The notes under the pieces: generated by a model | Seen by the model: only the letters and a program-made list of their open reading frames with translations | The model's database searches: none | Told to the model about the DNA's origin: nothing | Program-made: the position numbers and the translations under genes | Assembly: GCA_040776945.1 (NCBI GenBank) | Contig: JAXGZN010000001.1 | Coordinates: 800,001-864,000, forward strand | Direction: 5' to 3' | Source of the DNA: Methanomassiliicoccaceae archaeon | GTDB lineage: Archaea > Thermoplasmatota > Thermoplasmata > Methanomassiliicoccales > Methanomassiliicoccaceae | Length of the DNA stretch: 64,000 bases | In this document: piece by piece, positions 1 through 19,138 of the stretch | How the letters are laid out: every line of letters begins with the position of its first letter | Position numbering within the stretch: position 1 is the stretch's first letter

Positions 1-1294
1 GGGAGGCGAACGCCAGGACGCGGTTCATTCCGCCCTCGAGCTGTCCGGCGGTGTCCGGGCAGGCCTCGGCCACAATCTCCAGGACGTCGTCGCCTACCAC
101 GCAGCCCCCCCTTGAGGCCACCTTCCTGAGCATGCCGATCCGGGTCGCTTGGTCCAGCGGCCCGATCTCCACCACCAGCCCGGACTCCATCCTCGCCGCC
201 AAGCGGTCGGCGAGGGAGGGGATCCTTCTAGGCTCGCGGTCGGCGGTCATCACCACCTGCTTCCCGGCGGCGATCAGGCGGTTCACCGCCCGCATGAGGT
301 CGTCCTGCGCCCCCTCCCTGCCCGACAGCATCTGGACGTCGTCGATCAGCAGCGCATCGGCGGTGTCCAGTTCCTGGCGCAGGGAGGCCCGCGCCGCCTC
401 CGTGGTGCCGAGGTCCACCGAGTCCAGGGGTAGATAGACGACGTTCAGCTCCCGCCTCAGCCTCTTCATCTCATGCCCCACCGCCTGAAGGAGGTGGCTC
501 TTGCCCATCCCCTGGCGGGAGTGGATCACCAGCGGGTTGTATCGCCGTCCGGGCTCGGCGGCCACCGCCCGGGCGGCGGCCTCGGCGAAGCGGGAGCCGG
601 GGCCTCCCACGAACGCCGAGAACGAGGCCCGCGGGTCCATACGAGGTATCGAGGGGCTCTCCTCTTCCCGGGACGCGCAGCGCGGGCAGTAACCCAGAAG
701 ATCGATGGGACCTCCGCAGTCGCAGCAGACCCCTATGCCCTGGGAATCAGCGCGCATCTTGTGGTACTGGAGAACGAGGTCGTAAACCCCGCGGGCCTGC
801 TTCTCTGCACGATGGTCGTCAGTCCCCAGGCCGGCAGCGGCCAAGAGGTACCCTCCGGTGTTCTCCGGCTCCGCCCGGCGCAGCTTGTCCGCCCTCACCT
901 TCTCGGGAGGCAGGACGTTCCGGGGAGCCTCCGCGCGACGGACCTTGGCCCCCGGGAAGAGCTGTTCGAAGTCCTTGAGGTTCACCTCGGAGTGGAGGGA
1001 GACGACCGCCTCAGGACGGCAAGCGTCGTACCACAGGTACTCCGAAGCCTTCTCCCCGAGGAACCACAGCTCGTCCATGCCAATAGGGCGGAAGACATGG
1101 AGGCAAAGCGACGGTGACCCTGCGTACACCGAGAGAATGGACTCCGAGCGCTCGCCTTCGGCGCTGAGGACCACCTTGATGTAGCCGTTCAGGGAGGCCG
1201 AGCGGGCGCTCTCCGCCGCCTGGTCCAAGACGCCATCGCCCCCCTTCCACCGGGAGACGACCAGCCCCTGAGGGATGCCGAGCTCGAGAAGCAC
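1..1294 (-). CDS. Chimeric DnaA/Hda-family AAA+ protein: N-terminal DUF2226-like domain, Zn ribbon, DnaA domain III; C-terminus runs off the window
   Basis: Hand translation from GTG 1294, with no stop found in the stretches read: LNGYIKVVL..LGEKASEYLW (DUF2226-like); CCDC..YCPRC (677-727); SFSAFVGGPGSRFAEAAARAVAAEPGRRYNPLVIHSRQGMGKSHLLQAVG (Walker A); LLIDDVQ (Walker B); RLAARMESGL; QLEGGMNRVLAFAS. Missing from the ORF track because it has no stop inside the window. Confidence 0.85.
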   Translation of the reverse strand, partial: MLLELGIPQGLVVSRWKGGDGVLDQAAESARSASLNGYIKVVLSAEGERSESILSVYAGSPSLCLHVFRPIGMDELWFLGEKASEYLWYDACRPEAVVSLHSEVNLKDFEQLFPGAKVRRAEAPRNVLPPEKVRADKLRRAEPENTGGYLLAAAGLGTDDHRAEKQARGVYDLVLQYHKMRADSQGIGVCCDCGGPIDLLGYCPRCASREEESPSIPRMDPRASFSAFVGGPGSRFAEAAARAVAAEPGRRYNPLVIHSRQGMGKSHLLQAVGHEMKRLRRELNVVYLPLDSVDLGTTEAARASLRQELDTADALLIDDVQMLSGREGAQDDLMRAVNRLIAAGKQVVMTADREPRRIPSLADRLAARMESGLVVEIGPLDQATRIGMLRKVASRGGCVVGDDVLEIVAEACPDTAGQLEGGMNRVLAFAS

Positions 1295-1321
1295 ACTGAC
1301 CGGCGCAGCATCGCCCGGCGC

Positions 1322-1336
1322 GCTTAAAGCGTTTAT
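1322..1336 (-). promoter_or_regulatory. Putative BRE/TATA of the dnaA-like gene (near-leaderless)
   Basis: Minus strand reads AAACGCTTTAAG about 30 nt upstream of GTG 1294. Confidence 0.45.
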
Positions 1337-1370
1337 GTCATGGCTCCGTTCCAGCATAACGAGGGCCGAA

Positions 1371-1412: not shown

Positions 1413-1514
1413 GCCACTGTAGCTCAGCGGTAGTTCCCGGCCGGCCGGGGACCGCGAAAGAGCGACAGTTTCGTAAACTGTAGGCCGGGGGTTCGAAACC
1501 CCTCAGTGGCTCCA
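1413..1514 (+). tRNA. tRNA-Thr(CGU) with a 25-nt intron in the D-loop (about 1433-1457); CCA encoded
   Basis: Acceptor stem GCCACTG/CAGTGGC, D-stem GCTC/GAGC, anticodon arm ACAGT-TT-CGT-AA-ACTGT, T arm GGGGG-TTCGAAA-CCCCT, 3' TCCA. The D-loop insertion folds as a bulge-helix-bulge. Confidence 0.9.
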
Positions 1515-1515
1515 C

Positions 1516-2790
1516 TCATCCCTTCTTGAGGTAATCGTTGACGATCTTGATGGCGCAGACGTCGCCGCACATCGAGCATCCTTCCTTCTCATCGGTCACT
1601 CCCCGCGAGCGGTACTCTCTGGCCTTGGCCTCGTCTATGGCCTCACGGTACATGCCGTCCCAGTCCAGCGCCTTCCGGGCCAGGGACATCCGCATGTCCC
1701 GGTCCTTGCCCCGGCCCCGGGCGATGTCCGCGGCATGGGCCGCGATCTTCGACGCTATGAGGCCGTCCTTCACATCCTGGGGGGTAGGCAGGGAAAGATG
1801 CTCGGCCGGGGTCACGTAGCACAGGAAGTCAGCTCCGTGGTACGCGGCGAGAGCGCCGCCGATCGCCGCGGTGATGTGGTCGTATCCCGGAGCGATGTCC
1901 GTCACCAGGGGGCCGAGGACGTAGAACGGGGCGCCGTCGCACACGCTCTTCTGCAGCCGGACGTTCGCCTCCACCTGGTCCAGGGGCACGTGCCCTGGCC
2001 CCTCTACCATGGCCTGAACCCCGGCCCGGCGGCATCGGCGGACCAGCTCCCCGAGGTTCAGGAGCTCCTGCACCTGCGGACCGTCGGTGGCGTCATGCAC
2101 GCACCCTGGGCGGAAGCCGTCCCCCAGGGACAGAACGAACCCGTGCTCCCTCGCCAGCTCCAGCAGGTAGTCGAAGTTCTCATACAGCGGGTTCTCCTTT
2201 CCGTTGTGAAGAATCCACGCCACCAGGAAGGAGCCTCCCCGGGAAACCACATCGGTTATCCGGGGGCTCCGCCTCAGCCGCTCCACCGCCTCCCGGGTGA
2301 TGCCGCAGTGCACGGTCATGAAGTCCACGCCGTCCTTGGCATGCTGGACGATCCCGTTGAAGATGTCGTCCTCGTCCATGTCCACCAGGGCCCCCTTCCT
2401 TGCCATCCGCAGCCCGGTCTGGTAGATGGGCACCGTTCCGACCGGGACATCGCATGAAGCGAGCACCTTGCGGCGGATGGCGTCGATGTCCCCGCCGGTG
2501 CTGAGGTCCATTATCGCGTCGGCTCCGTACTGGAGGGAGATGCGGAGCTTCTCCATCTCCTCCTCCACCTCCACCCGGTCGCGGGAGGTCCCGAGGTTGA
2601 CGTTGACCTTGACCCTGAGCCCCTCCCCGATGCCGCAGGCCCGCGGCCGGTGCACGGGATTGCAGGGGATGACAACTCGGCCCTCGCGGAACCTCCTTGT
2701 GAGAACATGCTCATCGACGCCCTCGCTGCGGGCGATCTCCCGGATCCTGTCGCTATACGGTTCGCTTGCCACGACCATCTCGATCGGCAC
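1516..2790 (-). CDS. thiC: Phosphomethylpyrimidine synthase (ThiC family)
   Basis: KVNVNLGTS, IMDLSTGG, VGTVPIYQ, SRGGS, SLGDGFRPG, GYDHIT, LCYVTPAEHL, CSMCGDVC. Confidence 0.93.
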   Translation of the reverse strand: MPIEMVVASEPYSDRIREIARSEGVDEHVLTRRFREGRVVIPCNPVHRPRACGIGEGLRVKVNVNLGTSRDRVEVEEEMEKLRISLQYGADAIMDLSTGGDIDAIRRKVLASCDVPVGTVPIYQTGLRMARKGALVDMDEDDIFNGIVQHAKDGVDFMTVHCGITREAVERLRRSPRITDVVSRGGSFLVAWILHNGKENPLYENFDYLLELAREHGFVLSLGDGFRPGCVHDATDGPQVQELLNLGELVRRCRRAGVQAMVEGPGHVPLDQVEANVRLQKSVCDGAPFYVLGPLVTDIAPGYDHITAAIGGALAAYHGADFLCYVTPAEHLSLPTPQDVKDGLIASKIAAHAADIARGRGKDRDMRMSLARKALDWDGMYREAIDEAKAREYRSRGVTDEKEGCSMCGDVCAIKIVNDYLKKG

Positions 2791-3030: not shown

Positions 3031-4962
<1,932 letters not shown>

Positions 4963-4975
4963 GGGGGAACTTACA

Positions 4976-7522
4976 ATGGCGGAAGAGAACAACGATAACA
5001 CAAACAATGCGCCGGCGGGATCGGCGGGCAAGGAGGTCCACCGGCCGATCGAGCAGGAGATGAAGAAGTCGTACATCGACTACGCGATGAGCGTCATCGT
5101 CGGGAGAGCGCTCCCGGACGTCAGGGACGGCCTCAAGCCGGTGCACCGGCGCATCCTATACACAATGTACGAACTGGGTAACACATTCAATAAACCTCAT
5201 AAAAAGTGTGCCAGGATAGTCGGCGACGCACTTGGGAAGCTGCATCCTCACGGCGACACCGCGGTCTACGACGCCCTGGTCCGCATGGCCCAGGACTTCT
5301 CCTTGCGTTACACCTTGGTCGACGGGCACGGCAACTTCGGCAGCGTTGACGGCGACAGCGCGGCGGCGATGCGTTACACCGAGTGCCGGCTGGACAAGAT
5401 AGCCGAGGAGATGCTGCAGGACCTCGAAAAGGAAACGGTCGACTGGGCCGATAACTTCGACGGCACGCTCAAGGAGCCCGTTGTCCTGCCCTCGAAGCTC
5501 CCCAACCTGCTGGTCAACGGCTCCTCGGGCATCGCCGTGGGCATGGCGACCAACATCCCGCCCCATAATCTAAGGGAGGTGTGCGACGCGCTCGTCCATC
5601 TCATAGATGAGCCGTCGGCGGACAGCCTGGACCTTATGGCCTACGTCAGGGGGCCGGACTTCCCCACCGGCGGCATCATCTACGGCACCAACGGGATCGT
5701 CGAGGCCTATTCCACCGGCAAAGGCCGCCTGAAGGTGAGAGCGCGCACGTTCGTGGAGGAACACGAGGGCCGGAAGCGCATCATCGTGTCCGAGATACCA
5801 TACCAGGTGAACAAGTCCAACCTGCTGGAGAGCATCGCTGACCTGGTCAAGGACAAGAAGATCGAGGGCATCACGGACCTCAGGGACGAGAGCGACCGCG
5901 ACGGGATGCGCATCGTCATCGAGGTGCGCAAGGACGCCATGGAAGAGATTGTCCTCAACCAGCTGTTCGCGCACACCCAGATGGAGGTGACCTTCGGGGT
6001 CATCAATCTCGCCCTGGTGAACAACGAGCCGAAGGTCTTGACGCTCAAGGAGATGCTCCAGGCGTACGTCGACTACCGCAAGGAGGTCGTGACCAAGCGC
6101 GTGCAGTACGAGCTCCGGCAGGCGCTGGCCAGGGACCACATACTGCAGGGGCTGATAAAGGCGGTCGATTCCATCGACGAGACCATACGCATCATCAGGG
6201 AAGCGCGCACGACGGACGAGGCGCGGGACTCGCTGATGAAGCGCTTCGAACTGGACGACGTGCAGGCGAAGGCCATATTGGAGATGCGCCTGCGGGCCCT
6301 TACTGGTCTTGAGATCGAGGACCTCAAGGCCGAATACCTCGCCCTGGAGGTCAAGATCAAGGAACTGCAGGACATCCTCGCCGACATCGCCAAGATAATG
6401 GCAATCATCAAGGATGAGCTGGCGGAGGTGCGGGCGGAGTACGGTGATGACCGGAAGACCGAGATCGTCATCGACACCGGCGAACTGGACATCGAGGACC
6501 TCATCCCCAACGAGGAGATGGTGGTCATGATCTCCAGCGACAACTACATCAAGCGGCTGCCGCTCGATACATACAAGCAGCAGCACCGCGGCGGGCAGGG
6601 TCTCCTGGGCATGCAGACCAAGGAGGACGACGAGGTGGTCGATCTCTTCGTGACCATGACCCACAACAACATCATGTTCTTCACCAACAAGGGCCGGGTA
6701 TACCAGCTCAAGGCGTACCGCATCCCGGTCGCCGGGCGTCATTCCAAGGGCAAGCCCATCGTGAACCTGCTGCCCAAGCTCGAGGAGGGGGAGAAGATCG
6801 AGGACAACCTGCCGATCGACTCACTGGACGAGAACCAGGACCTGATGTTCGCCACCCGCAGCGGCATCGTCAAGAGGACGCCGCTCAAGGAGTACCGCAA
6901 CATACGCTCCAGCGGGATAATCGCCATCAGCCTGCAGGAGGGCGACTCGCTCGTGGACACCCAGTTGGTCCGCCCAGGCGACGAGATCGTGCTGGCCACC
7001 CGAAAGGGCCAGGCCGCCAGGTTCGACGCCTCTCAGGTCCGCTCGGTCGGCCGCCCGGCCATTGGGGTCATCGGCATGCGGCCGGACGAGGACGACGAGG
7101 TGGTCAGCATGGCGGTGGTGAGGCCGGAGGACAAGCTGCTGTCGATCACCGAGAACGGCTACGGCAAGATATCGCTGGTGTCGGACTACCGCAAGACCAA
7201 ACGCGGAGGGAAGGGGGTCATCACCATACGGACCACCGAGCGCAACGGCTGGGTGGTCTCGGTGAGCGCCATCCACGACGACGACCAGATCATCCTGACC
7301 ACCGTCCAGGGGAACGTGATACGGACCAGGGCCGAGGAGATCAGGACCATGGGTCGGTCCACCCAGGGCGTGACCATCATGGGGCTGACCAACGGGGACA
7401 AGATAACCGCCGTGGCGCGCCTCGCTGGAGCGCGGGAGGAGATGGCCGTCGTGCACACTGAGGCCAAGGAGGGCGATGACGTCCTTCCGCTGGTCAAGGA
7501 ACCCGATAACCCCGAAGAATAG
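4976..7522 (+). CDS. gyrA: DNA gyrase subunit A
   Basis: [36 protein letters not shown] catalytic Tyr, GyrA-box QHRGGQG, C-terminal pinwheel repeats. Confidence 0.97.
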
Positions 7523-7614: not shown

Positions 7615-8319
7615 ATCACGCTCAGGGACTCCATAGCGGGGCTCGATCGGATATTCAGGACAGACATCGACGCTCCCAAGGTGATATTGGTCTCCGGTCC
7701 ACCCGGCTCGATGAAGACCAGCTTCTGTCATTCGGTCATGTCAGGTTATCTGAACAAGGCCGGCGAGATCGGACTGTACGTCACTTTGGAAGAGACCGTG
7801 GCCAGTCATCTCAGCAACATGCGGGGCCTGGGGATAGAGCCAAGCTCCAACATGGAGATCTCGGACATCACCGACCTCCGGGAGCTGGACGAGATCATCG
7901 AGGAGGACCGGCCTACCGATTACATCCAGTTCATTGAACAGACCATCGAGTACTACAAGAAGAAGCACGGCGATCGGTTCACAGTTTTCGCACTGGACTC
8001 TCTGGGGGCCCTGTACTCGCTCATGGACGACAGCGAAAACATGCGAAAGAAGATGTTCTATTTCTTCAAGACGCTGCGCGACCAGAACCTGGTGTCGTTC
8101 ATCGTCATGGAGAGGTCCAGGGGCGGGCCGTCCGACCTCCTCGGCAACGAGGGGTTCCTGGTGGACGGGATCATCGAGCTTGGGCTCGACCGCGCCAGGG
8201 GCAAGCTGGCCCGGTTCATCAGGGTCGAGAAGATGAGGGCCTGCAAGCACAGCATGGAAAAGCACACCGTCGAGGTCGGGGACAAGGGAATGACCATCCT
8301 CGGTCCGACCCTTGGGTAA
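7615..8319 (+). CDS. KaiC/RAD55-family ATPase (start probably upstream of GTG 7681)
   Basis: In-frame upstream residues ITLRDSIAGLDRIF match the family N-terminus; variant Walker A GPPGSMKT, YVTLEE, FALDSL, LVDGIIEL, RVEKMR. Confidence 0.85.
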   Translation: MTLRDSIAGLDRIFRTDIDAPKVILVSGPPGSMKTSFCHSVMSGYLNKAGEIGLYVTLEETVASHLSNMRGLGIEPSSNMEISDITDLRELDEIIEEDRPTDYIQFIEQTIEYYKKKHGDRFTVFALDSLGALYSLMDDSENMRKKMFYFFKTLRDQNLVSFIVMERSRGGPSDLLGNEGFLVDGIIELGLDRARGKLARFIRVEKMRACKHSMEKHTVEVGDKGMTILGPTLG

Positions 8320-8371
8320 TGACATGACCGCATACACGGCGCAGCCAGCAGAGGAATCCGGAGGATCGCAC

Positions 8372-9433
8372 ATGGCCAATGATGAGACCCCCATATGGGA
8401 GGTCATTGAGGAGTTCAAGGAGAAGGTTAAAAGCCAGGAATACGAGCTCAAGAAGCGCAGGGACAAGCTGGAGAGCACCGAGGAGGAGCTGTCCAGGGTC
8501 CACAAGGAGCTCGAGGAACGGACCGCCCAACTGGATGCCCGGGAGCGGGACATCCAGGGACGGCTTTCCGAACTTGTCCCGCGGGAGAACGCGGTCCAGG
8601 AGGCCGAGCTGGCCCTGCGCGCCCAAGAGAGGGAACTGCGTCTCCGCGAAGAGGAGGTGCAGCGCTCCAGGGTGGAGATCGAGCGCCGCCAGGCGGACCT
8701 CAGTCGCCAGGAGGAGGCCCTGGTCGCTCTGTCGGAGCGCTCAGCGGCATACGAGAGCAGCATCCAGGCAATGAGCGAGCAGATCAAGGAGATGGAGTCC
8801 GGACTTCTCAAGGACCAGGAACGCGCCAGGCAGCTCCTCGAAGAGCTCACCACGGCGAGAGAGGGCCTGCTGGCAAAGGGCAAGGTCCTTGCGGACCAGG
8901 AAGCCCTGCTGGCCGAGGGCCGCAGGATCGTCCTGGAGGAGCAGAAGCGCTTCGTCGGCTGGGAAAGGACCCTGAACGAGAGGGAGGAGAGCATCGCCCG
9001 CCGTTCATCGCTGCCGCCTCTCGAGGCGCCCACCGAAGAGCCCGAGCTGTCAGAGGCCTCACCGCCACATGAGCCTGAGCCAGTTGAGGCCGAGCCGGAG
9101 ATAGAGCCATCCATCGCCGAGCCAGAACCGGTTGCTGAGCCCGAACCGATCGAGGAGGACGAGGCCCCCACACCGGTCTACCGCGCCGAGGAGCCCGAAC
9201 CGATCGAGGAGGACGAGGCCCCCACACCGGTCTACCGCGCCGAGGAGCCGAGGCCGTCCGGGCCGGCATGCCCCAACTGCTCGGAGCCGGTCGCTGAGCA
9301 CGACGATAGATGCGGGCATTGCGATCACGCATTGAAGGAAACGCCCAAGGCAGGGGAAGCGGAGAAGGGGGACACGAAAGAGGACCCGTCGAAGAAGCCG
9401 GTTTCCATCCGCAAGATCATCCGCCGGAAGTAG
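8372..9433 (+). CDS. Coiled-coil protein with acidic Pro-rich linker and C-terminal Zn ribbon
   Basis: Long E/R/L heptad region; CPNC..CGHC; basic tail IRKIIRRK; GGAGG before ATG 8372 (ORF open from 8312). Confidence 0.8.
   Translation: MANDETPIWEVIEEFKEKVKSQEYELKKRRDKLESTEEELSRVHKELEERTAQLDARERDIQGRLSELVPRENAVQEAELALRAQERELRLREEEVQRSRVEIERRQADLSRQEEALVALSERSAAYESSIQAMSEQIKEMESGLLKDQERARQLLEELTTAREGLLAKGKVLADQEALLAEGRRIVLEEQKRFVGWERTLNEREESIARRSSLPPLEAPTEEPELSEASPPHEPEPVEAEPEIEPSIAEPEPVAEPEPIEEDEAPTPVYRAEEPEPIEEDEAPTPVYRAEEPRPSGPACPNCSEPVAEHDDRCGHCDHALKETPKAGEAEKGDTKEDPSKKPVSIRKIIRRK
9137..9249 (+). repeat. Perfect 54-bp tandem duplication (EPEPIEEDEAPTPVYRAE x2)
   Basis: Identical units start at 9137 and 9191. 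Confidence 0.9.
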
Positions 9434-9561: not shown

Positions 9562-12500
9562 ATGCCAGGTGGGTTCATGAAAGGTCGCATATTGGCCAGT
9601 AGAGCTGCGAGCGTCATGATCGCGATAGGCCTTCTTTTAACGCCGATCGCGAGCGTGGTGTTCCTCATGGGTACGACAGGGGGCGCGGGCCCGCTGCCGT
9701 CTGACTACTCGAACGGCGACCGCGTTATCGGTTCGGACTACGCGGTCGAAACGTGGAGCGTGACGTCCACATACACTATGAACGGGAACCTGACCATCAG
9801 GTCCGGCGGTGTGGTCACGGTCTCCGGCGGAGGCCTTGTGTTCGCTGAGAACACCGGTCCCGATAAGATCGCCGGTACCGCTGATGATCGAGTGTATACG
9901 CTAACGATAGAGGACGGCGGAAAGCTCATACTGAGCAACTCGACGCTCACCACTAACCTGAACCAGCTCAACTCCTTCCCCAGCTTGGGGGTCATCGTCC
10001 GCAACGGAGGCGTCCTGGAGGCATATGACAGCGTGCTGTCCTTCCCGGGCCACCTGGTGGTCGACGATTCCACGCTGACCATGTGGAGGTCCAACATCAC
10101 CGGCAACGATCAGGTCGGCATCTACTGTAATGACACCTTCTTCCCGGAGCAGATATTCCGATACGCCCCGGTCCTGATGTTCATGTCATCTACCGTCAAC
10201 CTGTTCGATTCCTCGCTGCCGAACATCTACCAGACCCCCAACTCCACCGCGTACAACACGACCGAGATGTACACGAGCATGTACAATCACAAGTATCCGT
10301 TCGCGGTCGATGTGAACAACCCAATAACCAAGGCCAGGGAGAGCACGGCCTACTATCTGGAAAGGATGCCCTCCGCCAAGGGCGCCAGCGATAACACCGG
10401 CTCGGTGCTGCGGAACCTCCAGATGTCCGACAGGCTGTATTACAACGTGACGAACGGACAGACCATGGCGCTGGACGGGTTCGACGCCGGCGGCCTAATG
10501 TTCAGCGCCTCCGACAGCGTGGTGGCGAGGCTGAACGTTCAATACTACACCGATATTGGATACTCCAGCCCCTCAACCGTGCAGTACCAGTTCCGCAACG
10601 GAGCTACCGGCTCGACGGCCCTTTCGTTCACCAATACGCCGATCAACCCGGTGACCGGCACGGCGGACGAGGCTACGGCCTCGGCGACCCTGCCTCTCAT
10701 GTCCTCCCTGGACCTGTACGGCCTGAACCTTAGGTTCACAAACAGCGGCGGCCAGACCATCCACATCAACAAGATATGGATAACCTTCGAGATAATCGCA
10801 CCCACCTATACCAGCATCAATCTGGCCGGCAACACTCAGCTGACCGCGGTCAACACCTTCCTTGGCGTGGACTTCTCCAACAAGGAGAACCACAACACCA
10901 TGGTGCTCCGCGACAACTCGATGGCCTACCTGTACGGAGTGTCTCTGGACAACAGCACGGAGAAGACGGTCTCTCCGGCCGATAGGCAGCCCGCCTTCGT
11001 GACCATAGACAAGACCTTGGAGGCCACCGTCTCGTCCAAGTCGGTGAACGACACCACCGGTGAGAACATCGGAAGCCTTACCGCGATAGATACTTCGTAC
11101 TACCAAATAATGCCTGGTAGGGTCATGGAGATCAACGGGTTCAACACAAGCGATCTTAACGGACCCCTGTCTGGAGCGACCATCACTCTGACATATTCGA
11201 CAAGCTCGGGCTACACTCCAGGCAATTACCTACAATGGAGAGCGGACGACGGAACCTTCCATAACACCGCAATCCGGCCCCAATATACGCCAACTGCGGT
11301 ATCTGCCAGCTTTAACCTTTATGGCAATGGCGTTACCGAGGTGTCCGACGTCAGGAACCTAGAGGTCAGGTTCGCGAATGCGCACGCTAGCGCCAACGTG
11401 ATCGTGAGCAAACTATCCGTTGCGATGACCGTCAGTCCGACCATCTACATCTACCGCTGGGCGAACCTGATGGTCACCGACGAGCAGTCCCTGCCGGTCT
11501 ACGGCGCTACCGTGTCGTCAGTGCTCCAGAACTCCGGCGCCCCGGCGTACTACTACACGCCCGGCGGCCTTAGCGCCTATCCGTCCAGCGAGGTGCTCCA
11601 GTACCTCGGCAAGGATCTGACGAGCTACGGCGCCACCGACAACGAGGGAAAGGCCAGCATGCCGTTCCTGTCAGAGGTGCTCAACCAGGCCAACCCCAAC
11701 CCGTACGCGGCCTTCGCCTACGAGCTGACGGTGACCTACCAGAACTCGACCGGTTCAGTGTTCACCAACACAACTGGACTGGCCTTCCGCCCCTACCCGG
11801 ACATGACCCCTGCCAATACTTGGAAGAGGGTCAACATCACCATGCCCTCGCTTGCCCTCGAGCTCCCGGACCTGGTGATGCTGCCGATCAGCCTAGCCCC
11901 GGCGACGATCTATGACGGGGAGAGCGTGCAGATATCGGCGGTCCTTCATAACCGCGGCAGGACCACCGCCACCAGGGTGGAGGTGTCCATCATCGGCTAC
12001 ATCAACGGCTCGATACCTGCGTTCTGGTCCAACCAGACCATCGACACGATAGCGCCCGGCACTGAGAACGATCAGCCGCTTGCTACCGTGACCTGGGCCC
12101 ATATACCTGCGGGCAAGCACATCGTCAGCGTGATAATCGACCCCGCTCGCAAGATATCCGAGGAGAGCAAGGCCAACAACGTGATGTCCAAGCAGTTCAC
12201 CGTCCTGGCGAACCTGCCCGACCTCACGCTCAGCTCGACGGACATCGTCTTCGATCCCCAGCCGGCCAGCTCCAGCGACCTGGTCACCGCCACCATCTAC
12301 GTCAACAACACTGGGCGGGCCTCGGCCGACAATGCCACCATCTCGCTGTATGCCGGTGATGCCAGCCTCGGAGGCCAGTTCATCGGGTCCACGGTGGTGA
12401 CGATATCCGCCGGAAGCTTCGTGAAGACCACCTACAGCTGGAAGCCTTCCCAGATCGGCACCTATCCAGTGTTCGTTTACGTGAACGCCGACCGCTCCAT

Positions 12501-15500
12501 AGTGGAGTACGATTTCGACAACAACGAGGCGTTCAAGTCCATGACCGTCACCATGACCATTGACGGCGAAGACCTGGTGGTCGGAGGGGTGGACTACCCA
12601 ACGCTGACCATAGCCGGTCCCAACGCCTTCAACTGGGCCTACAACGTGGCGGTCATAAACAACGGCGTGCTGACGATCAGCAACACCGCTTTCACCGAGG
12701 TTCAGTCCAGCGCGTACCAGAGCAGGATCGTCGTGCAGGACCACGGCAAACTGGTGCTCACCGACGGGACGATGCTGAACTCCAACTTCAACATGGACAT
12801 GTATCTGATGGACAACGCCAACCTTACGGTGACGAACTCCAAGATATCGAACTCTGTGCGCATCCGGGCGGACGGCGCGAGCTCGGTGAACATAATGTCC
12901 TCGGAGATCGGCGCGGACCTTGTGGCTCCTGAGACCTCGCACGCCCACGTGTTCGTACAGGACACTACCTTCAGCCGCGCGTGGTCCTCCTTCGGAGGGC
13001 ACGCGGTGGCCGATGTTACCAACGTGTCGATAGCTTCGCTCAACGCCCAGGGCTCCGCGGTGATCAACCACTACCGCTGGGTCAAGGTCGTGGCCCTCGA
13101 TGGCACCGGGGAGAGGCTCCCCGGCTCTTACGTCGCCATCAGGCACCTGGTCAATGGGCAGTATGCGAGCGGGATGACCGGCGCGGACGGGTCCATAACC
13201 TTCAGGGTCCTGACCGATGTCCGCACCGCAGGCATGACCGTCCACCAGGGCTTCATTGGGGACTACATCGCCAACACCACCTACACCTATCAGGGCCAGA
13301 GCTTTGCCGGCCAGCACCCCATGAACGTGGGCATAGTCGGCTACTCGGAGCCTCTGGTCAGGTCGGTGCTGCCCCCGGTGACGATCCCTGTCCCCGGCGC
13401 CCTGCCGGACCTGGACCCTCCCATACATGTGTCCACCAGCACCCCGACCCATTATCAGGACGTTACAGTCTCGACCACCGTGTCCAACATCGGCGTGGTG
13501 GCGGCCCATAACGTCCTGGTGATGTTCAACGACACCGGCGTGACGTTCTATCAGTACACCATACCGGTGATCCAGCCGGGCCAGTCGGTGGACATCAGCA
13601 CCATCTGGAACGCCAGGCAGCTAGGGGAGCGCAACATCAGCGTGGTCATCGACCCCTACGGCAGGATCAACGAACTGGACAAGACCAACAACGGCAACTA
13701 CACCATCGTGAACGTCCAGGGCATAGCCGATCTTTCCGTCCAGAGGAACGATGTGACCATAAGTCCGACGACCCCGGCAAGGGGCCAGACCTCCACGATA
13801 TCGGCGAACATATGGAACACCGGCGATGTCTCCGCCAGCAACGTGCTGGTGAGCTTCTACGTCACCGCGCCAGGAGGCACCGTCAGAACATTGCTGGCCG
13901 ACGTCAACGTGGCCTACATCGACGTGAATGAGCACGGCGTGGCCACCACCGCGTGGACCCCTAGCCAGCCGGGCACCTACACCATCGAGGTGATAATCGA
14001 CCGCAACTCGGCGATCACCGAGATATCGGAGGAGAACAACAGCGTGTCGTTCTCCCAGAAGGTGCTGAACTACGCCGACCTGAGGCCCAGCTTCATAGTG
14101 TTCAATCCCGCCAGCCCGGTAAGCGTCGGGCAGAACGTCAATATAGAGGCGGCGGTGAAGAACATCGGTGAGGTGCCGGCGACCAACGTCGTCGTCCACT
14201 TCTACCGCGGCACCACGGCCGGTACCCTGATCGACACCCAGATCATCAGCTCTATCAACCCCGATCAGACGGTCACCGTGACCGGGCGCTGGACGGCCAC
14301 GCTTCTCGGCGGGGGGGTCTCGAGCACCCCGATAACGGTCTCCGTGAACCCCGCCGGCGAGGGCCGCATCAACGAGATCGACTATAACAACAACGCGATC
14401 AGCCAGAACCTGGTGGTCAACGACCTGAGGGCCGACCTCCTGTTCGTTGACGATATAGTCATAACCAGGGGCAGCGAGGCCGTGAGCCACGCAGCGCAGG
14501 GCGAGACGGTCGACATTTCCGTCATCGCCGCGAACGGAGGAAGCACCACCGCGATATCCGCGGCGTTCTACTTCTACGCGGTGAACGAGGATGACGAGCG
14601 GACCCTCATCGGCATCGCCCTGAAGAACCTGGAGGCCGGGGCCGAGGTGAAGGTCAACACCACATGGCAGATCAACCTCACCATGGGCACCTACGGCATC
14701 CTGGTCATAGCTAACGCGGATGGCATAATCGATGACAAGGACGCCACCAACAACGAGGTGGCCGCGCTCTTCACCATCGACGCGCCCAACGCTGCGGTGG
14801 AGATATACACCCTGGACAGCACGTCCTACGCCCCGGGCACCAACATCTTCGTGACCGGCAAGGTCTTCAACAGGAACACCTCGCAGGCCATACCTGGTGC
14901 ATCGGTGTCGGTATGGCTGGAGCGCAACGGCGTGCAGGTGGGCGAGAAGTTCAACGGCAGCACCAACGCCGAAGGCATCTTCGCCATCCCGCTGTATGTG
15001 CCAGAGGGCTCATCGGGCAGCTACCAGATCCATGGCGAATCGGCCATGGGGGACAAGGTGTTCACCTCCTCAAAGAACGTGAGCATCGTTCAGGTCGACG
15101 GTGGCGGCATCCCATGGTACATCTACCTGATGATCCTGGGGGTCATCGCCGCGGCCATCATCCTCTTCTCCGCCTGGCTGTACAAGTATGGTCTGGGAAA
15201 GATGGTGGAGTGCGGGGAGTGCGGGGCCCTGATCCCGGACTCCTCCAAGCGCTGCCCCAAGTGCGGCGTGGAGTTCGAGGTCGGCACCGCGAAGTGCAGC
15301 GAATGCAGCGCATGGATACCGTCGAACTCCACCACCTGTCCGGAGTGCAATGCCCGGTTCATCGGGGACGCCATCGAGGAAGAGGAGGACGCCTACCTCA
15401 AGAAGATGAGGGAACAGTACGAGGCCTACGTGGAAACCTACCGCGAGGAAGCGAAGAAGTCCATGGGCAAGAAGTACTCCGACGGCAAGTTCCAGGATTG

Positions 15501-15840
15501 GTTCAAGAAGCAGCCGAGCTACGTAAGCTTCGAGAACTGGCTGTCCAAGGAGGAGGAGAAGCGGAAGTTCACCGGGGTCTCCTGCCAGAGCTGCGGCACC
15601 CTCAACCCGCGCGGCTCGCCGGTCTGCCATAAGTGCGGCTCGAACCTAGAGGTAAAGAAGCCAGAGGCGCCGGAGGAGCAGTCCAAGCCCGAGGCCCCCA
15701 GGCCGATGAGGCGCATCGTGCGCCGGCCCGTGGAGAAGAGGACGGTCAAGTCCGAAGCTCCGGCGGAGGAGCCCAAGGCCGAGGAACAGCCCAAGGCCGA
15801 GGAACAGCCGAAGGCCGAAGAGGACAAGCCAGCGGAGTGA
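9562..15840 (+). CDS. Large cell-surface glycoprotein: CARDB repeats and beta-helix-like segments, C-terminal TM helix, cytoplasmic Zn ribbons
   Basis: N-terminal signal sequence; six (LP/IA/YA/RA)DL..N.G..E....NN CARDB-type units; many N-x-S/T sequons; TM WYIYLMILGVIAAAIILFSAWLY; six CxxC pairs in the tail. Confidence 0.88.
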   Translation: MPGGFMKGRILASRAASVMIAIGLLLTPIASVVFLMGTTGGAGPLPSDYSNGDRVIGSDYAVETWSVTSTYTMNGNLTIRSGGVVTVSGGGLVFAENTGPDKIAGTADDRVYTLTIEDGGKLILSNSTLTTNLNQLNSFPSLGVIVRNGGVLEAYDSVLSFPGHLVVDDSTLTMWRSNITGNDQVGIYCNDTFFPEQIFRYAPVLMFMSSTVNLFDSSLPNIYQTPNSTAYNTTEMYTSMYNHKYPFAVDVNNPITKARESTAYYLERMPSAKGASDNTGSVLRNLQMSDRLYYNVTNGQTMALDGFDAGGLMFSASDSVVARLNVQYYTDIGYSSPSTVQYQFRNGATGSTALSFTNTPINPVTGTADEATASATLPLMSSLDLYGLNLRFTNSGGQTIHINKIWITFEIIAPTYTSINLAGNTQLTAVNTFLGVDFSNKENHNTMVLRDNSMAYLYGVSLDNSTEKTVSPADRQPAFVTIDKTLEATVSSKSVNDTTGENIGSLTAIDTSYYQIMPGRVMEINGFNTSDLNGPLSGATITLTYSTSSGYTPGNYLQWRADDGTFHNTAIRPQYTPTAVSASFNLYGNGVTEVSDVRNLEVRFANAHASANVIVSKLSVAMTVSPTIYIYRWANLMVTDEQSLPVYGATVSSVLQNSGAPAYYYTPGGLSAYPSSEVLQYLGKDLTSYGATDNEGKASMPFLSEVLNQANPNPYAAFAYELTVTYQNSTGSVFTNTTGLAFRPYPDMTPANTWKRVNITMPSLALELPDLVMLPISLAPATIYDGESVQISAVLHNRGRTTATRVEVSIIGYINGSIPAFWSNQTIDTIAPGTENDQPLATVTWAHIPAGKHIVSVIIDPARKISEESKANNVMSKQFTVLANLPDLTLSSTDIVFDPQPASSSDLVTATIYVNNTGRASADNATISLYAGDASLGGQFIGSTVVTISAGSFVKTTYSWKPSQIGTYPVFVYVNADRSIVEYDFDNNEAFKSMTVTMTIDGEDLVVGGVDYPTLTIAGPNAFNWAYNVAVINNGVLTISNTAFTEVQSSAYQSRIVVQDHGKLVLTDGTMLNSNFNMDMYLMDNANLTVTNSKISNSVRIRADGASSVNIMSSEIGADLVAPETSHAHVFVQDTTFSRAWSSFGGHAVADVTNVSIASLNAQGSAVINHYRWVKVVALDGTGERLPGSYVAIRHLVNGQYASGMTGADGSITFRVLTDVRTAGMTVHQGFIGDYIANTTYTYQGQSFAGQHPMNVGIVGYSEPLVRSVLPPVTIPVPGALPDLDPPIHVSTSTPTHYQDVTVSTTVSNIGVVAAHNVLVMFNDTGVTFYQYTIPVIQPGQSVDISTIWNARQLGERNISVVIDPYGRINELDKTNNGNYTIVNVQGIADLSVQRNDVTISPTTPARGQTSTISANIWNTGDVSASNVLVSFYVTAPGGTVRTLLADVNVAYIDVNEHGVATTAWTPSQPGTYTIEVIIDRNSAITEISEENNSVSFSQKVLNYADLRPSFIVFNPASPVSVGQNVNIEAAVKNIGEVPATNVVVHFYRGTTAGTLIDTQIISSINPDQTVTVTGRWTATLLGGGVSSTPITVSVNPAGEGRINEIDYNNNAISQNLVVNDLRADLLFVDDIVITRGSEAVSHAAQGETVDISVIAANGGSTTAISAAFYFYAVNEDDERTLIGIALKNLEAGAEVKVNTTWQINLTMGTYGILVIANADGIIDDKDATNNEVAALFTIDAPNAAVEIYTLDSTSYAPGTNIFVTGKVFNRNTSQAIPGASVSVWLERNGVQVGEKFNGSTNAEGIFAIPLYVPEGSSGSYQIHGESAMGDKVFTSSKNVSIVQVDGGGIPWYIYLMILGVIAAAIILFSAWLYKYGLGKMVECGECGALIPDSSKRCPKCGVEFEVGTAKCSECSAWIPSNSTTCPECNARFIGDAIEEEEDAYLKKMREQYEAYVETYREEAKKSMGKKYSDGKFQDWFKKQPSYVSFENWLSKEEEKRKFTGVSCQSCGTLNPRGSPVCHKCGSNLEVKKPEAPEEQSKPEAPRPMRRIVRRPVEKRTVKSEAPAEEPKAEEQPKAEEQPKAEEDKPAE
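15766..15830 (+). repeat. Short 18-bp coding repeats (EEQPKA)
   Basis: cccaaggccgaggaacag repeated imperfectly at the 3' end of the CARDB gene. Confidence 0.7.
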
Positions 15841-15943: not shown

Positions 15944-16531
15944 ATGACCGACAAATGTCCGCGATGCGGCGCCAATGTTCCTGAGGGGGTCGACGCGTGC
16001 GTCATATGCGGGGCCGAGTACAGCAGGGACGCCCAGCCTGCGCAGGCCGCTCCGACAACGAGCGCGGACGTGAACCAGACCGCCAGATGCCAGAACTGCG
16101 GGGCCGTCCTGCAGGGAAGGGAGGTGTTCTGCGGAAGGTGCGGTTTCCTCATCGATGCCCCTTATGAGTGCCGGGACTGCCGGACGCGGATCGGCGCCGA
16201 GGACCGCTACTGTACTGGCTGCGGACGCCTGGTCCGCCCGGCCAAGCTGTTCCGCTCCCCCTCCCGGCCGATAGCCGCCCTGCTGTTGGGGCTGGTGCCC
16301 GGACTGTTCTCGGTATGGGGGCTGGGGCAGCTGTTCTCCGTATCGATCAAGAAGGGAGTGCTGTTCTTCGTGCTGGGCATAGTGATGACGCTGGTGAACC
16401 CGTTCACCATCATAGCCGCCATCAACGGTCTCGGGGACCTTGCCGGCCTGTCCATACTGGGAATGGTGCTGTGGGCCGCGCTATGGATCCTTCAGGCCAT
16501 CGACGCGTACTGGGAAGCGGGCGGGGAGTAG
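15944..16531 (+). CDS. Triple double-Zn-ribbon membrane protein (TM2-like C-terminus)
   Basis: Six CxxC pairs, then AALLLGLVPGLFSVWGLGQLF and further TM helices. Confidence 0.8.
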   Translation: MTDKCPRCGANVPEGVDACVICGAEYSRDAQPAQAAPTTSADVNQTARCQNCGAVLQGREVFCGRCGFLIDAPYECRDCRTRIGAEDRYCTGCGRLVRPAKLFRSPSRPIAALLLGLVPGLFSVWGLGQLFSVSIKKGVLFFVLGIVMTLVNPFTIIAAINGLGDLAGLSILGMVLWAALWILQAIDAYWEAGGE

Positions 16532-16551: not shown

Positions 16552-18234
16552 TCACTCGGCCATCTTCTCCTTGACCTCTTTCATCACTTTCTCGGGGTCC
16601 TTGTAGTAAGCGGACACGATCTTCGCCACCTGGCGGTAGTTGTTCACCCCGATCTTCTTCATGTACTCCAGGATGTCGATGCGCCTCTTCACCTCCCGCT
16701 CCATCTCCCTGGGTGACCAGTTGCGCACCGCCCTGACCTTCTCGTATATGTAGGAGTGGCCGGAGTAGGTGAACGAGTCGTCGGCGGGGTTCCAGTTGAA
16801 CACCGAGTTGGTGATGAGCTCGCCGGTCTCGGGGTCCATGCCCACTATCTCCGTCAGGCCCTTCACCCGCCGGGTCATCTTCGTCCCGACCTTGACCTGG
16901 CCTTGGAGCAGAACGAGGTTCAGGGCGGTGAGCAGGGCGCGAGGCAGCTCGATCGGCTCGTTCTCCAGCCGATGGACCATCGCCTGAACGTCCTCAGCAT
17001 GGAACGTCGAGTACGATATGTGCCCAGTGGCCATGGCCTGGAAGACCACGTACGCCTCTTTGCCACGGACCTCGCCGACCATCAGGTACTGGGGCCTTTG
17101 CCTCAGCGCGGCGGTCAGCAGGTCGAACATGTTGATGGTCCCGCTCATCGCGCCGGTCTTCCCGCCGAAGCCCTCCCTGGTCAGGCCGGGGATCCAGTTC
17201 TCGTGGGGAAGGTTCAGCTCACGAGTGTCCTCGATGCTGACGATCTTCATCTGCGGAGGGATGAACAGCAGGATGGCGTTGAGCGTGGTGGTCTTCCCGG
17301 ACGCTGTCCCGCCGCATACGAGCATGGAGGAACCGAACTCCACCGAGATCCATAGATAGGCCATCATCTCGGTGGAGAGGGTCTTGAAGCGCAGCAGGTC
17401 CACCGGAGTGAAGGGATTGTCCTTGAAACGCCGGATGGTGAACGACGACCCCCGTTTGGTGACATGCTTTCCCAGGGTCGCATTGAGCCTGGAGCCGTCA
17501 GGGATGGTGGCGTCGAGAAGGGGGTTGGCCACCGATATGTGCTTCCCGCACTTCTGGGCCAGCCACACCACGTAGGCGTCCAGCTCGTCCTCCCGCTCGA
17601 ACTTGATGTTGCTCTTGATGCTGCCGTACTTGCGGTGGTAGATGTAGAGAGGGATATCGACCCCGTCGCAGGAGCAGTCCTCGATGTTGGGGTCTATCAT
17701 CATCACATTGATGACGCCGTAGCCGGTGAAGTCACGGCGGAGATAGTACATGATCCGCTCCTTGGAGATGGGGTTGATCTCGACCCCGAGCTTGTTCAGG
17801 AGCCTTTCGGTCGCGCGGTTCAACACATCCCGCTTCTCCTCCACCTCCTTGGTCTCGGCAAGGTTGAGGGATACGATGAGCGAGCTCTTGAGCACGTCCA
17901 GAAGGGCGCTCTCGTCTGCGGTGAGCTTCGGCTCGATCACCTCGAAAAGGTACTCTCCGGCAGTGCCGTCGTACTTAATGCGCACGAAGGAGTAGGGGTC
18001 CTCGATAGGGATGACCTCGACCTCCTCCATGTCCGGCTCGGTGATCTTCGGCACCTCCGTGATGCAGGTCGAATCGCCGCAGGCGATGGCGCTCGGCAGC
18101 CGTACCCGCACCGGCCTCTTCCGCACCTTGTGAAGGAACGAGAGGTAGCGGGAGGCGATGGACAGCCTTTCCTTCTTCTCCTGCTCATCCTCGAACAGAG
18201 GCTCTATCTCGTCCTGCTGAATAGCTTCGTCCAT
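16552..18234 (-). CDS. Type II/IV secretion (VirB11/ArlI-like) pilus ATPase, copy 2
   Basis: EDCSCDG, SFTIRRF, GGTASGKTT, SIEDTRE, ALRQRPQYLMVGEVRG, ATGH. Confidence 0.93.
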   Translation of the reverse strand: MDEAIQQDEIEPLFEDEQEKKERLSIASRYLSFLHKVRKRPVRVRLPSAIACGDSTCITEVPKITEPDMEEVEVIPIEDPYSFVRIKYDGTAGEYLFEVIEPKLTADESALLDVLKSSLIVSLNLAETKEVEEKRDVLNRATERLLNKLGVEINPISKERIMYYLRRDFTGYGVINVMMIDPNIEDCSCDGVDIPLYIYHRKYGSIKSNIKFEREDELDAYVVWLAQKCGKHISVANPLLDATIPDGSRLNATLGKHVTKRGSSFTIRRFKDNPFTPVDLLRFKTLSTEMMAYLWISVEFGSSMLVCGGTASGKTTTLNAILLFIPPQMKIVSIEDTRELNLPHENWIPGLTREGFGGKTGAMSGTINMFDLLTAALRQRPQYLMVGEVRGKEAYVVFQAMATGHISYSTFHAEDVQAMVHRLENEPIELPRALLTALNLVLLQGQVKVGTKMTRRVKGLTEIVGMDPETGELITNSVFNWNPADDSFTYSGHSYIYEKVRAVRNWSPREMEREVKRRIDILEYMKKIGVNNYRQVAKIVSAYYKDPEKVMKEVKEKMAE

Positions 18235-18235
18235 A

Positions 18236-19138
18236 TCAGATCAACCTCGTTCCCATGAACCCTATGAGCAGCATGATGAAGGAGTGCTTCAGCCCGGTAG
18301 GGATCTGGCCGTCCGCGAGCACTCCCGCCAATATACCGTCGCCGAAGGCGTGGATAAGCACCGACAAGATGAATATGGTCTGGATCGTGGGGATCGTATC
18401 GACCTTTATGGTCGCCAGGCCAGAGGTGTCCACTCCGGCCCTCTCCGCACCCTCCGCGACCATCTGCCCAGCCTCGGTCATCTTAGGCAGGAAGGTCGAG
18501 TTCAGGATGAAGATGGTGGCTATGAACACCGCGAAGGCAACATAGATGACCACGGTGTAGGTGGACATGGCCAGCTTTCGCTCGGCCTGATTGAGCATGG
18601 ACTCCCTGGCGTCGTGAGCGACCATGGTCAGCACGTCGGAGACCGAGCCCCCGGCGTCATTGGCCTTGATGATGATCGACGTCATCCTCTTGACCAGCGG
18701 GGTGTTAACGCGCTCGGAGAACAGCCTCATGGCCTCCGAGGCCGGCACACCCCAGTCTATCTGGGCGGCCATTCGGTGGATCTCCGGCGTTAGCTTGCCG
18801 TAGCGTCCCCGGGAGGAGACCTTGATCGCCTGCGCCAGGGTCATTCCGAAGCGTCCCGCCTCCGCCACGTCCCGAAGGAACTCCGGCAGGCGGACCTCGA
18901 TGTCGCGGATCTTCTTCATCTGCGCGCTCTTATAGAACCCGTACGGCCCGCTGATGGCCATAAGGCCGAAGAACACGAAGTCGACCCAAATGAACGGCGT
19001 GTCGATGCCTCCGATGGCCTCCAGGAATGCCATGGCGAACAGCAGCGCCGCTATCACCCCGCAGACGATGAGGATGGTCTGGCTGTAGTCGAGCTTTTTC
19101 AGGTCCAGTTGATCCAGGTCAATGATGTCCTCGGCCAT
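18236..19138 (-). CDS. Type II secretion F / TadC-like membrane platform protein
   Basis: RLPEFLRDVAEAGRFGMTLAQAI, YGKLTPEI, several TM helices. Confidence 0.88.
   Translation of the reverse strand: MAEDIIDLDQLDLKKLDYSQTILIVCGVIAALLFAMAFLEAIGGIDTPFIWVDFVFFGLMAISGPYGFYKSAQMKKIRDIEVRLPEFLRDVAEAGRFGMTLAQAIKVSSRGRYGKLTPEIHRMAAQIDWGVPASEAMRLFSERVNTPLVKRMTSIIIKANDAGGSVSDVLTMVAHDARESMLNQAERKLAMSTYTVVIYVAFAVFIATIFILNSTFLPKMTEAGQMVAEGAERAGVDTSGLATIKVDTIPTIQTIFILSVLIHAFGDGILAGVLADGQIPTGLKHSFIMLLIGFMGTRLI

Follow-up and report, generated by a model that had tools for sequence, protein, structure and literature searches.

What does a bacterial DnaA-type ATPase do in an archaeon that has Orc1/Cdc6 genes of its own? 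The question is raised by a stretch of 64,000 nucleotides from a Methanomassiliicoccaceae archaeon (GenBank assembly GCA_040776945.1, contig JAXGZN010000001.1, positions 800,001 to 864,000 of the forward strand), referred to here as the window, at whose left edge lies part of a gene for a 630-aa protein, FAM, in which an N-domain, a zinc ribbon, a DnaA-type AAA+ module and a C-terminal DUF835 domain are fused. The answer favoured here, with a probability of about one half, is that FAM would serve a type IV filament-like apparatus as its ATP-gated adaptor or scaffold, and would not be a replication initiator. The latter role is unlikely because FAM has neither domain I nor domain IV of DnaA, the host genome carries two Orc1/Cdc6 genes (the ordinary archaeal initiators, as a first-pass annotation of the window had pointed out), the AAA+ cassette has been lost in some relatives, and there are families of the class without FAM.

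Whatever its function, FAM makes a textbook bacterial DnaA-type AAA+ module a standing part of a vertically inherited protein across many uncultured Thermoplasmata families that initiate replication with Orc1/Cdc6. If the adaptor reading is correct, an initiator ATPase would have been exapted as a nucleotide switch, archaeal pili and archaella would gain a new class of accessory factor, and PATAN-like and inactivated-KaiC domains would acquire a shared context that can be tested. The family also supplies natural experiments, in the form of lineages without sensor II, without the zinc ribbon or without the whole AAA+ cassette, and its architecture corrects the name "chromosomal replication initiator protein DnaA" that one database source has put on relatives. 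No account of this architecture turned up in literature searches covering main texts. The combination of a DnaA-type ATPase with DUF835 goes unmentioned in the available portions of PMC5847659 and PMC4858521, and the word DnaA occurs 0 times in the latter, a 2016 survey of archaeal type IV pili.

Domain architecture of FAM

The FAM gene is located on the minus strand at G000:C1:799465-801357 of the source genome, G000 (2.17 Mb in two contigs, 99.84% complete), of which the window represents G000:C1:800001-864000. Codons 1-452 occupy window positions 2..1357, within a frame that is open and translatable over 1..1357, and the last 178 codons, encoding the end of the AAA+ lid, a linker and DUF835, lie to the left of the window. 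Because the frame is open at the window's left edge, the gene is absent from the track of open reading frames (ORFs). Two start codons are candidates, an ATG at 1357 and a GTG at 1294 (codon 22), the latter coinciding with the end coordinate given in the first-pass annotation: the majority of homologues start level with the GTG, three reach the ATG, and a TTTAAT box, read by eye, is found about 20 nt upstream of the ATG. Fourteen DNA runs from seven studies contain 97-100% of the sampled words of FAM; these are wastewater, sludge, digester and biofilm metagenomes, some of which may be the source of the G000 assembly. A single DNA contig spans the neighbouring partner gene, DUF835, the AAA+ and the zinc ribbon with zero differences, and RNA-library contigs from three studies are 100% identical to FAM and bridge both the N-domain/zinc-ribbon and the AAA+/DUF835 junctions. 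Their presence in RNA libraries suggests that FAM is transcribed.

The central module of the protein is a DnaA-type ATPase. Its AAA+ base (residues 240-397; 167..640, on the minus strand like every part of FAM) was delimited by matches from Pfam, NCBIfam and PDB, and is followed by the lid, of which residues 398-452 are encoded within the window (2..166). Translation of the coordinates places Walker A (GMGKSH) at 494-511, Walker B (LLIDDVQ) at 332-352, box VII (RLAARMESGL) at 176-205 and the sensor II position (Gly438, in PDTAGQLEG) at 44-46, and it bears out every motif quoted in the first-pass annotation, the zinc ribbon included. Pfam Bac_DnaA matches residues 241-397 with 142.4 bits (E 1.8e-41), and the NCBIfam DnaA model TIGR00362 scores 205 bits over profile positions 98-335 of 437, missing its equivalog cut-off of 343.9. 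Of any solved structure or family model, bacterial DnaA is the best sequence match to this module (B. subtilis DnaA 8btg, 158 bits, E 2.3e-45; T. maritima DnaA in PDB, E 1.2e-37). Hda TIGR03420 reaches 91.4 bits against a cut-off of 194.8 (PDB Hda, E 8.5e-10), NCBIfam IstB 26 bits against a cut-off of 200, and DnaC 12 bits; DnaI-type loaders in PDB give E values of about 1e-3, and DnaC/DnaI-type proteins about 20 bits. DnaA models and structures therefore outscore all three alternatives, and the initial assignment of the module to the DnaA type, not to IstB, DnaC or Hda, holds. The sole other Bac_DnaA-like match in the source genome is an ordinary IstB-like protein located elsewhere.

FAM resembles domain III of bacterial DnaA in its Walker A (GxGKS/TH), Walker B (DD), sensor I Asp, box VII arginines and lid, but differs in having neither domains I/II nor the helix-turn-helix (HTH) of domain IV, in the loss of sensor II, and in being encoded by an archaeon with Orc1/Cdc6. 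The domain I model DnaA_N (PF11638) finds no match in FAM, where, as had been noticed, another N-domain and a zinc ribbon stand in the place of domains I/II. The idea that a domain IV might follow the AAA+ fails on extension of the gene beyond the window, which reveals DUF835 and no HTH domain: Bac_DnaA_C, the domain IV model, is absent from FAM and from 20/20 relatives scanned, with DUF835 standing there instead, and Bac_DnaA and DUF835 occur together in 21/21 proteins scanned (FAM and 20 diverse members of the class).

The C-terminal domain, DUF835 (Pfam PF05763), covers FAM residues 493-625 with 81.5 bits (E 6.3e-23) against a gathering cut-off of 33.1. A model of it, folded with 22 relatives (predicted local distance difference test, pLDDT, 92.2), has FlaH/ArlH of S. 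acidocaldarius (4yds) as its best Foldseek match (E 1.9e-6, TMq 0.65), followed by RecA, Elp456 and KaiC among 167 matches at E≤1e-3. The fold is common to FAM and ArlH/FlaH, but FAM has other residues in place of the P-loop (SYIVLEPRPDRAY), with EPRPDRAY in the loop that follows strand 1, and by eye the Walker A signature GK[ST] is present in 0/22 aligned C-domains. DUF835 is thus modelled as an ArlH/KaiC-like pseudo-ATPase, and both the model and the loss of the P-loop agree with the label of inactivated-KaiC ("iKaiC") output domain under which it is listed in the available part of Galperin et al. 2018 (PMC5847659). The same Pfam domain serves as the output domain of archaeal response regulators, from which FAM differs in that its upstream module is a DnaA-type ATPase. 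The source genome encodes nine DUF835 ORFs behind differing upstream modules, for example the receiver domain of L133. At L132 (G000:C2:561900-565370), the ORF at L132:1495-3471 on the minus strand, one of these nine, forms the end of a 1392-aa open frame, the upstream part of which by eye is like the C-terminus of isoleucyl-tRNA synthetase, an odd fusion if real.

The N-domain (residues 22-135; 953..1294) probably belongs, as a remote member recognised through profile searches, to the PATAN (DUF4388)/DUF2226 superfamily, and it occurs once in the source genome. An AlphaFold2 (AF2) model of residues 22-150, built from 40 sequences (pLDDT 91.7), has the order strand, helix, four strands, helix, strand, helix. 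When a profile of 25 N-domains, A3, was run against 1.84 billion representative proteins, 378 were found at E≤1e-3, including proteins of about 340 aa with tandem domains, which Pfam labels DUF4388. The matches to DUF4388/DUF2226 proteins have whole-protein E values of about 1e-15, with single stretches at 2e-7 to 1e-3, and one protein found in this way scores DUF2226 at 51.8 bits. Alignment of A3 by hhalign with 12 such proteins (12/12 DUF4388, 2/12 also DUF2226) gave a probability of 97.9% (E 6.2e-13, 76 columns) on the very stretch that Pfam assigns to DUF4388, and the ESM Atlas returned, as leads only, a DUF2226-bearing cluster (0.87) and a PatA_N cluster (0.86). When 23 close relatives were scanned at E≤10, with 25 of 56 families listed, neither DUF2226 nor DUF4388 appeared among those 25, and the gathering cut-off of DUF2226 is reached in 0/151 genomes of the phylum. 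The by-eye call of DUF2226 with which the domain was first described is hence upheld at the level of the superfamily, by the profile searches and hhalign, and fails at the level of the family, where the Pfam model is silent.

The N-domain is joined to the rest of the protein by a linker with a conserved helix, VYDLVLQYHKM (734..952), which in most other lineages is about 130 aa longer and carries a W..GY.V..LE motif and a predicted coiled coil. It is followed by the zinc ribbon (671..733; GVCCDCGGPIDLLGYCPRCAS), a CxxC-x9-CxxC arrangement of C211, C214, C224 and C227, cysteines that are invariant in 23/23 close relatives. The order of N-domain, zinc ribbon and AAA+ originally proposed is correct, and incomplete in that the C-terminal DUF835, with its ArlH/KaiC-like fold, lay outside the window.

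Distribution, catalytic residues and descent of the family

About 30 full-length clusters of FAM relatives are known from Methanomassiliicoccus-like sources, under the names "DnaA/Hda family protein" (the one used by NCBI), "DUF835 domain-containing protein" and "chromosomal replication initiator protein DnaA". Across the class, 230/301 genomes match FAM at E≤1e-5, a count that includes weak partial matches and genome G098. Most families have strong matches to the combination of zinc ribbon, AAA+ and DUF835 (39/39 in f7 and 41/41 in f18, for example); in the same class-wide search FAM was found in 0/33 genomes of family f21, and f2 and f13 gave weak partial matches only. A scan of species genomes with an alignment of the C-domain yielded 159 relatives, of which the best 80 are the loci described in what follows. 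All 80 come from metagenome-assembled genomes (MAGs) labelled Methanomassiliicoccales, Thermoplasmata, Thermoplasmatota or unclassified Euryarchaeota/Methanobacteriota. The AAA+ is present in the same ORF at 59/80 loci, 54 of them complete with the N-domain, and the CxxC..CxxC motif is found at 39 of these 59; a further 20/80 loci have the N-domain and DUF835 without the AAA+, and one has neither.

The short forms (340-445 aa) are found at L052-L075, in Methanomassiliicoccaceae MAGs, and keep the N-domain, DUF835 and the convergent partner gene described below. Because another short form, L117, retains the coiled coil and the zinc ribbon, the AAA+ cassette must have been lost at least twice. 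At the other extreme, four metagenome proteins of 1250-1420 aa (P0177, P0212, P0216 and P0232) comprise an N-domain, a middle part of about 850 aa and a Bac_DnaA match of about 230 bits, and they end in a double zinc ribbon, not in DUF835.

Conservation of the catalytic residues, at positions that we take to be equivalent to those of E. coli DnaA, was counted over 135 unique AAA+ sequences of the family. The Walker A Lys is kept in 134/135, the two Walker B Asp positions in 135/135 and 133/135, the Asp of the sensor I region in 130/135, the box VII Arg in 125/135 at each of two positions, and the sensor II Arg in 126/135. Conservation of the Walker and arginine-finger residues argues that the AAA+ would be a working, nucleotide-dependent assembly switch in most lineages. 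FAM keeps Walker A, Walker B, the sensor I Asp and both box VII arginines, and Gly438 confirms the replacement of the sensor II Arg that had been reported alongside the retained box VII arginines. The nine sequences without this arginine are FAM (the sole Gly), five close relatives and P0027 (Ser), and the divergent pair P0148/L040 (Asn), and relatives at 76-77% identity to FAM retain it; judged from these alignments, sensor II was lost late and locally, within a small subclade.

The AAA+ trees, in which the bacterial DnaA sequences are those nearest to FAM, are unrooted or rooted on Gemmatimonadota paralogues and have a weak backbone. FastTree, applied to 137 sequences, groups the archaeal family with the sampled bacterial DnaA in a single cluster of weak resolution that excludes the Gemmatimonadota-type paralogues, and makes the long forms sister to bacterial DnaA. 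A quick IQ-TREE run on 70 sequences places 27 bacterial DnaA on one side of a branch with SH-aLRT 96. Holding the 31 archaeal DUF835-type sequences together gave a better tree than the free search (+35 log-likelihood units, p-AU 0.94), and did so again with the long forms added (p-AU 0.93). These results are compatible with a single origin of the archaeal AAA+ module. They also leave its suggested horizontal acquisition from bacteria plausible, as the archaeal AAA+ can form one clade beside the sampled bacterial DnaA; because the latter are the ones nearest to FAM, the trees point to no particular donor, nor do they establish a direction of transfer. A search of shorter proteins for an Hda outgroup gave mostly fragments and no Hda, and the Orc1/Cdc6 genes of the genome gave no alignment to the AAA+ hidden Markov model at the thresholds set. 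A joint transfer of dnaA and gyrBA from a bacterial origin region was also considered, and set aside as unparsimonious because gyrase is far commoner in archaea than the DnaA-type module and gyrB is linked to FAM in only 7/11 genomes.

Hda and a Gemmatimonadota-type "DnaA/Hda family" are likewise DnaA-derived AAA+ proteins without a DNA-box-binding domain, but Hda scores far lower against FAM, and the Gemmatimonadota proteins have other flanks and branch, in both trees, outside the group made up of archaeal and true DnaA sequences. The latter proteins (P0033-P0065, P0075, P0080, P0115 and P0117, labelled Gemmatimonadota or unlabelled) are named "DnaA/Hda family", measure about 570-710 aa and have no domain IV; their AAA+ is positioned at the N-terminus or near the C-terminus, and they form two separate clades outside true DnaA.

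Gene neighbourhood and the filament adaptor

A convergent partner gene abuts FAM, the two stop codons being 0 nt apart (G000:C1:799464/799465; 964/965 in L001). Its product has between one and three double zinc ribbons, a linker rich in Pro, Ala and Glu, and a helical domain of some 250 aa to which Pfam assigns no family. The partner is convergent and directly downstream in 57/59 of the AAA+-bearing loci and likewise in 19/21 short-form loci, the other two of which have less than 310 nt of flank, and it is present in 14/18 loci of a first set. RNA-library contigs cross the stop junction between FAM and the partner (X15 record 10, X17 record 16); if they represent real RNA, the 3' ends overlap.

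On the other side of FAM, the window contains a cluster of genes of type IV filament character. A KaiC-family ATPase of single-domain size (7681-8319, plus strand; Pfam PF06745, 107 bits) is followed on the same strand by a coiled-coil protein that carries a zinc ribbon at its C-terminus and has a basic tail (8312-9433), matching L140:5096-6274 in position and layout (BLASTP E 7e-5), by a giant CARDB protein of 2092 aa with six repeats and a double zinc ribbon near its C-terminus (9562-15840), and by a small double-zinc-ribbon protein (15944-16528), the last two of which have the same gene in L139 and L140. The minus strand then encodes a PilB-type ATPase (16555-18234), PilC/T2SSF (18239-19138) and a second PilB-type ATPase (20184-21923). 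In two genomes, G026 (f17) and G047 (f23), FAM, the partner, KaiC, the zinc-ribbon protein, the giant CARDB protein, PilB, PilC and PilB are contiguous and in the same order; the source genome has the same cluster genes, but with a tRNA gene, thiC, gyrB and gyrA between FAM and the KaiC gene. Linkage to PilB was combined from several searches, one of which gave 150 of 636 matches with a tally that includes G098 and G212. Among the matches listed, PilB-type genes are located 9-27 kb from FAM on the same contig in at least 16 genomes of 8 families. The PilB pair is visible in 11 linked genomes, and a single match is among those listed for G116, G121, G232, G226, G092 and G020. In keeping with such a link, genus g2 of the source genome's own family has neither gene, FAM being found in 0/1 and a PilB-type ATPase in 0/4.

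A role at a filament machine is favoured because three independent lines converge, namely an N-domain of the PATAN kind, an ArlH-like C-domain, and a cluster of KaiC, PilB, PilC and zinc-ribbon genes. Since PATAN docks on PilB/PilC in cyanobacteria, and ArlH onto ArlI in archaella, the outer domains of FAM may likewise dock on the motor. PATAN is DUF4388, and its binding to PilB1 and PilC in Synechocystis is described in the accessible text of bioRxiv 10.1101/2021.06.11.447907. The PATAN regulators PixE and PixG and DUF2226 proteins have a profile in common with the FAM N-domain and a theme, PilB/PilC, in common with FAM, which for FAM consists of genomic association; they differ in that the N-domain of FAM is fused to an AAA+ and DUF835, not to a receiver domain, and in it no alpha-clip insertion was identified. 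In the available sections of Makarova et al. 2016 (PMC4858521), archaeal type IV pilus loci are described as having KaiC-family ATPases and double-zinc-ribbon proteins in their company.

In the mechanism proposed here, the AAA+ modules would assemble on ATP binding via the box VII arginine finger, as in DnaA, and assembly would control the docking of the N-domain and DUF835 onto the partner and the PilB/PilC/KaiC machine. Because the AAA+ is excised in some lineages that retain the partner, it would modulate the function of the protein rather than constitute it. In the lineage of the source genome the AAA+ may be eroding, with its sensor II lost and its Walker insert shortened; its ATP turnover would probably be slow, and most of the function may rest with the outer domains.

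A number of observations weigh against such an adaptor. The N-domain is only remotely related to its superfamily: the Pfam DUF2226 (PF09987) and DUF4388 models find no match at E≤1 in FAM or 20 relatives and nothing at E≤10 in the whole source genome, Foldseek with the N-domain model finds nothing in PDB at E≤1e-3, and the best wide VIA-align match (Z 5.3, to PPC/DUF296-like and other chains) is under chance level. Linkage is not universal, as among the matches listed some 240 kb separate FAM from the PilB-type genes in family f20 (G021, G033), and in 23 fragmented genomes these genes are on other contigs, so that linkage is undecidable there. Where it does hold, the 16 linked genomes are not independent, because related genomes share gene order by descent. 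PilB-type ATPases are present in 269/301 genomes of the class, including families without FAM (65/67 in f13, 34/48 in f21), and because they are near-universal their co-occurrence with FAM is uninformative. In 7/11 genomes (G000 and six others), gyrB is 1.7-8 kb from FAM, closer than the pilus genes, and FAM and its partner, being convergent, cannot be co-transcribed. Methanomassiliicoccus is described as non-motile. No secretion ATPase is recorded for the Methanomassiliicoccus genomes of Makarova et al. 2016, in the portion of that survey at hand (PMC4858521).

Alternative readings and remaining features of the window

The proximity of gyrB lends itself to a different explanation, in which FAM would be a chromosome-associated factor that forms ATP-dependent filaments on DNA, aided by its zinc ribbon, and has a replication, origin, chromosome or topology role beside Orc1/Cdc6 and gyrase. 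Such a factor would account for the complete DnaA motif set seen in most family members, sensor II included (126/135), for a Walker-to-Walker stretch that by eye is DnaA-like in length and consensus in most lineages, for Bac_DnaA scores of up to 238 bits in other lineages, and for an AAA+ that is nearer to true DnaA than the Gemmatimonadota-type DnaA/Hda paralogues are. It sits poorly with the absence of domains I and IV in 21/21 proteins, the two Orc1/Cdc6 genes, the 20/80 loci without the AAA+ cassette, and the families in which FAM is not found (f21) or gives weak partial matches only (f2 and f13). The association with gyrB is itself uneven: gyrB is on another contig in G047 and G114 and at 48 and 112 kb from FAM in G021 and G008, respectively, and G047 still has the pilus cluster beside FAM despite having lost the gyrB linkage. 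A chromosomal role is consequently possible but doubtful.

Somewhat more doubtful is the view that in the lineage of the source genome the AAA+ is a decaying relic, and that it is the N-domain, DUF835 and the partner alone that count. In related Methanomassiliicoccaceae MAGs, and separately at L117, the syntenic position of FAM is taken by short orthologues that lack the AAA+, and FAM itself has lost sensor II and has an insert between its Walker motifs that is 4 residues shorter than in B. subtilis DnaA. Its Bac_DnaA score of 142 bits compares with 170-238 bits in 16/20 other lineages scanned, the four others being near or under it (99.6, 162.4, 165.2 and 170.0 bits). A relic would not be expected, on the other hand, to have an intact reading frame, to keep Walker A, Walker B, the sensor I Asp and both box VII arginines, or to show an AAA+ region that is stop-free and 64-79% identical among its closest relatives.

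The first-pass annotation had envisaged a permanently ATP-bound, "locked" oligomeric switch that ties the chromosome to division or polarity, which now appears improbable. DnaA sensor II mutants of E. coli are defective in regulated ATP hydrolysis, and FAM does combine Gly438 at sensor II with retained Walker A, Walker B and box VII motifs. As the loss of sensor II is late and limited to 9/135 sequences, with relatives at 76-77% identity keeping the arginine, locking cannot describe the mode of the family. No division gene is found in the conserved neighbourhood of FAM, and the sole hint of division is an EzrA-like ESM Atlas lead for the partner (0.79), within chance range. The proposed link of chromosome to division does not fit the filament-like cluster, whereas a scaffold or polarity role fits it loosely; PATAN proteins do act in polarity systems, as stated in the consulted part of bioRxiv 10.1101/2021.06.11.447907.

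It is also a long shot that FAM would couple DNA to the filament machine, the DnaA module keeping a nucleic-acid filament activity while the outer domains tether it to PilB/PilC, and just as slim a chance attaches to the more specific forms of this idea, an archaeal DNA-uptake or DNA-export device or a chromosome anchor at the filament machine; if true, an initiator ATPase would be at work on a cell-surface apparatus. An artificial fusion produced by chimeric assembly or a mis-join can be dismissed, as the architecture is found in 20/20 other class genomes scanned and in the 54/80 complete loci from named MAGs, and as the DNA runs of seven studies and DNA and RNA contigs contain it and bridge its junctions.

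The genes between FAM and the KaiC gene begin with a tRNA gene of 99 nt (1413..1511, plus strand; Rfam RF00005, 58 bits), which was missed by ARAGORN and probably contains an intron. A tRNA-like stretch is also seen upstream of FAM in L015, through a similar translated peptide only. The tRNA gene is followed by thiC (1516-2790, minus strand), gyrB (3034-4962, plus strand) and gyrA (4976-7522, plus strand). Beyond the second PilB-type ATPase, a 610-aa KaiC/DUF7504 protein is encoded at 23726-25555. A 476-aa ORF without a family match (7741-9171, minus strand) overlaps the KaiC and coiled-coil genes and is probably a spurious GC-rich frame.

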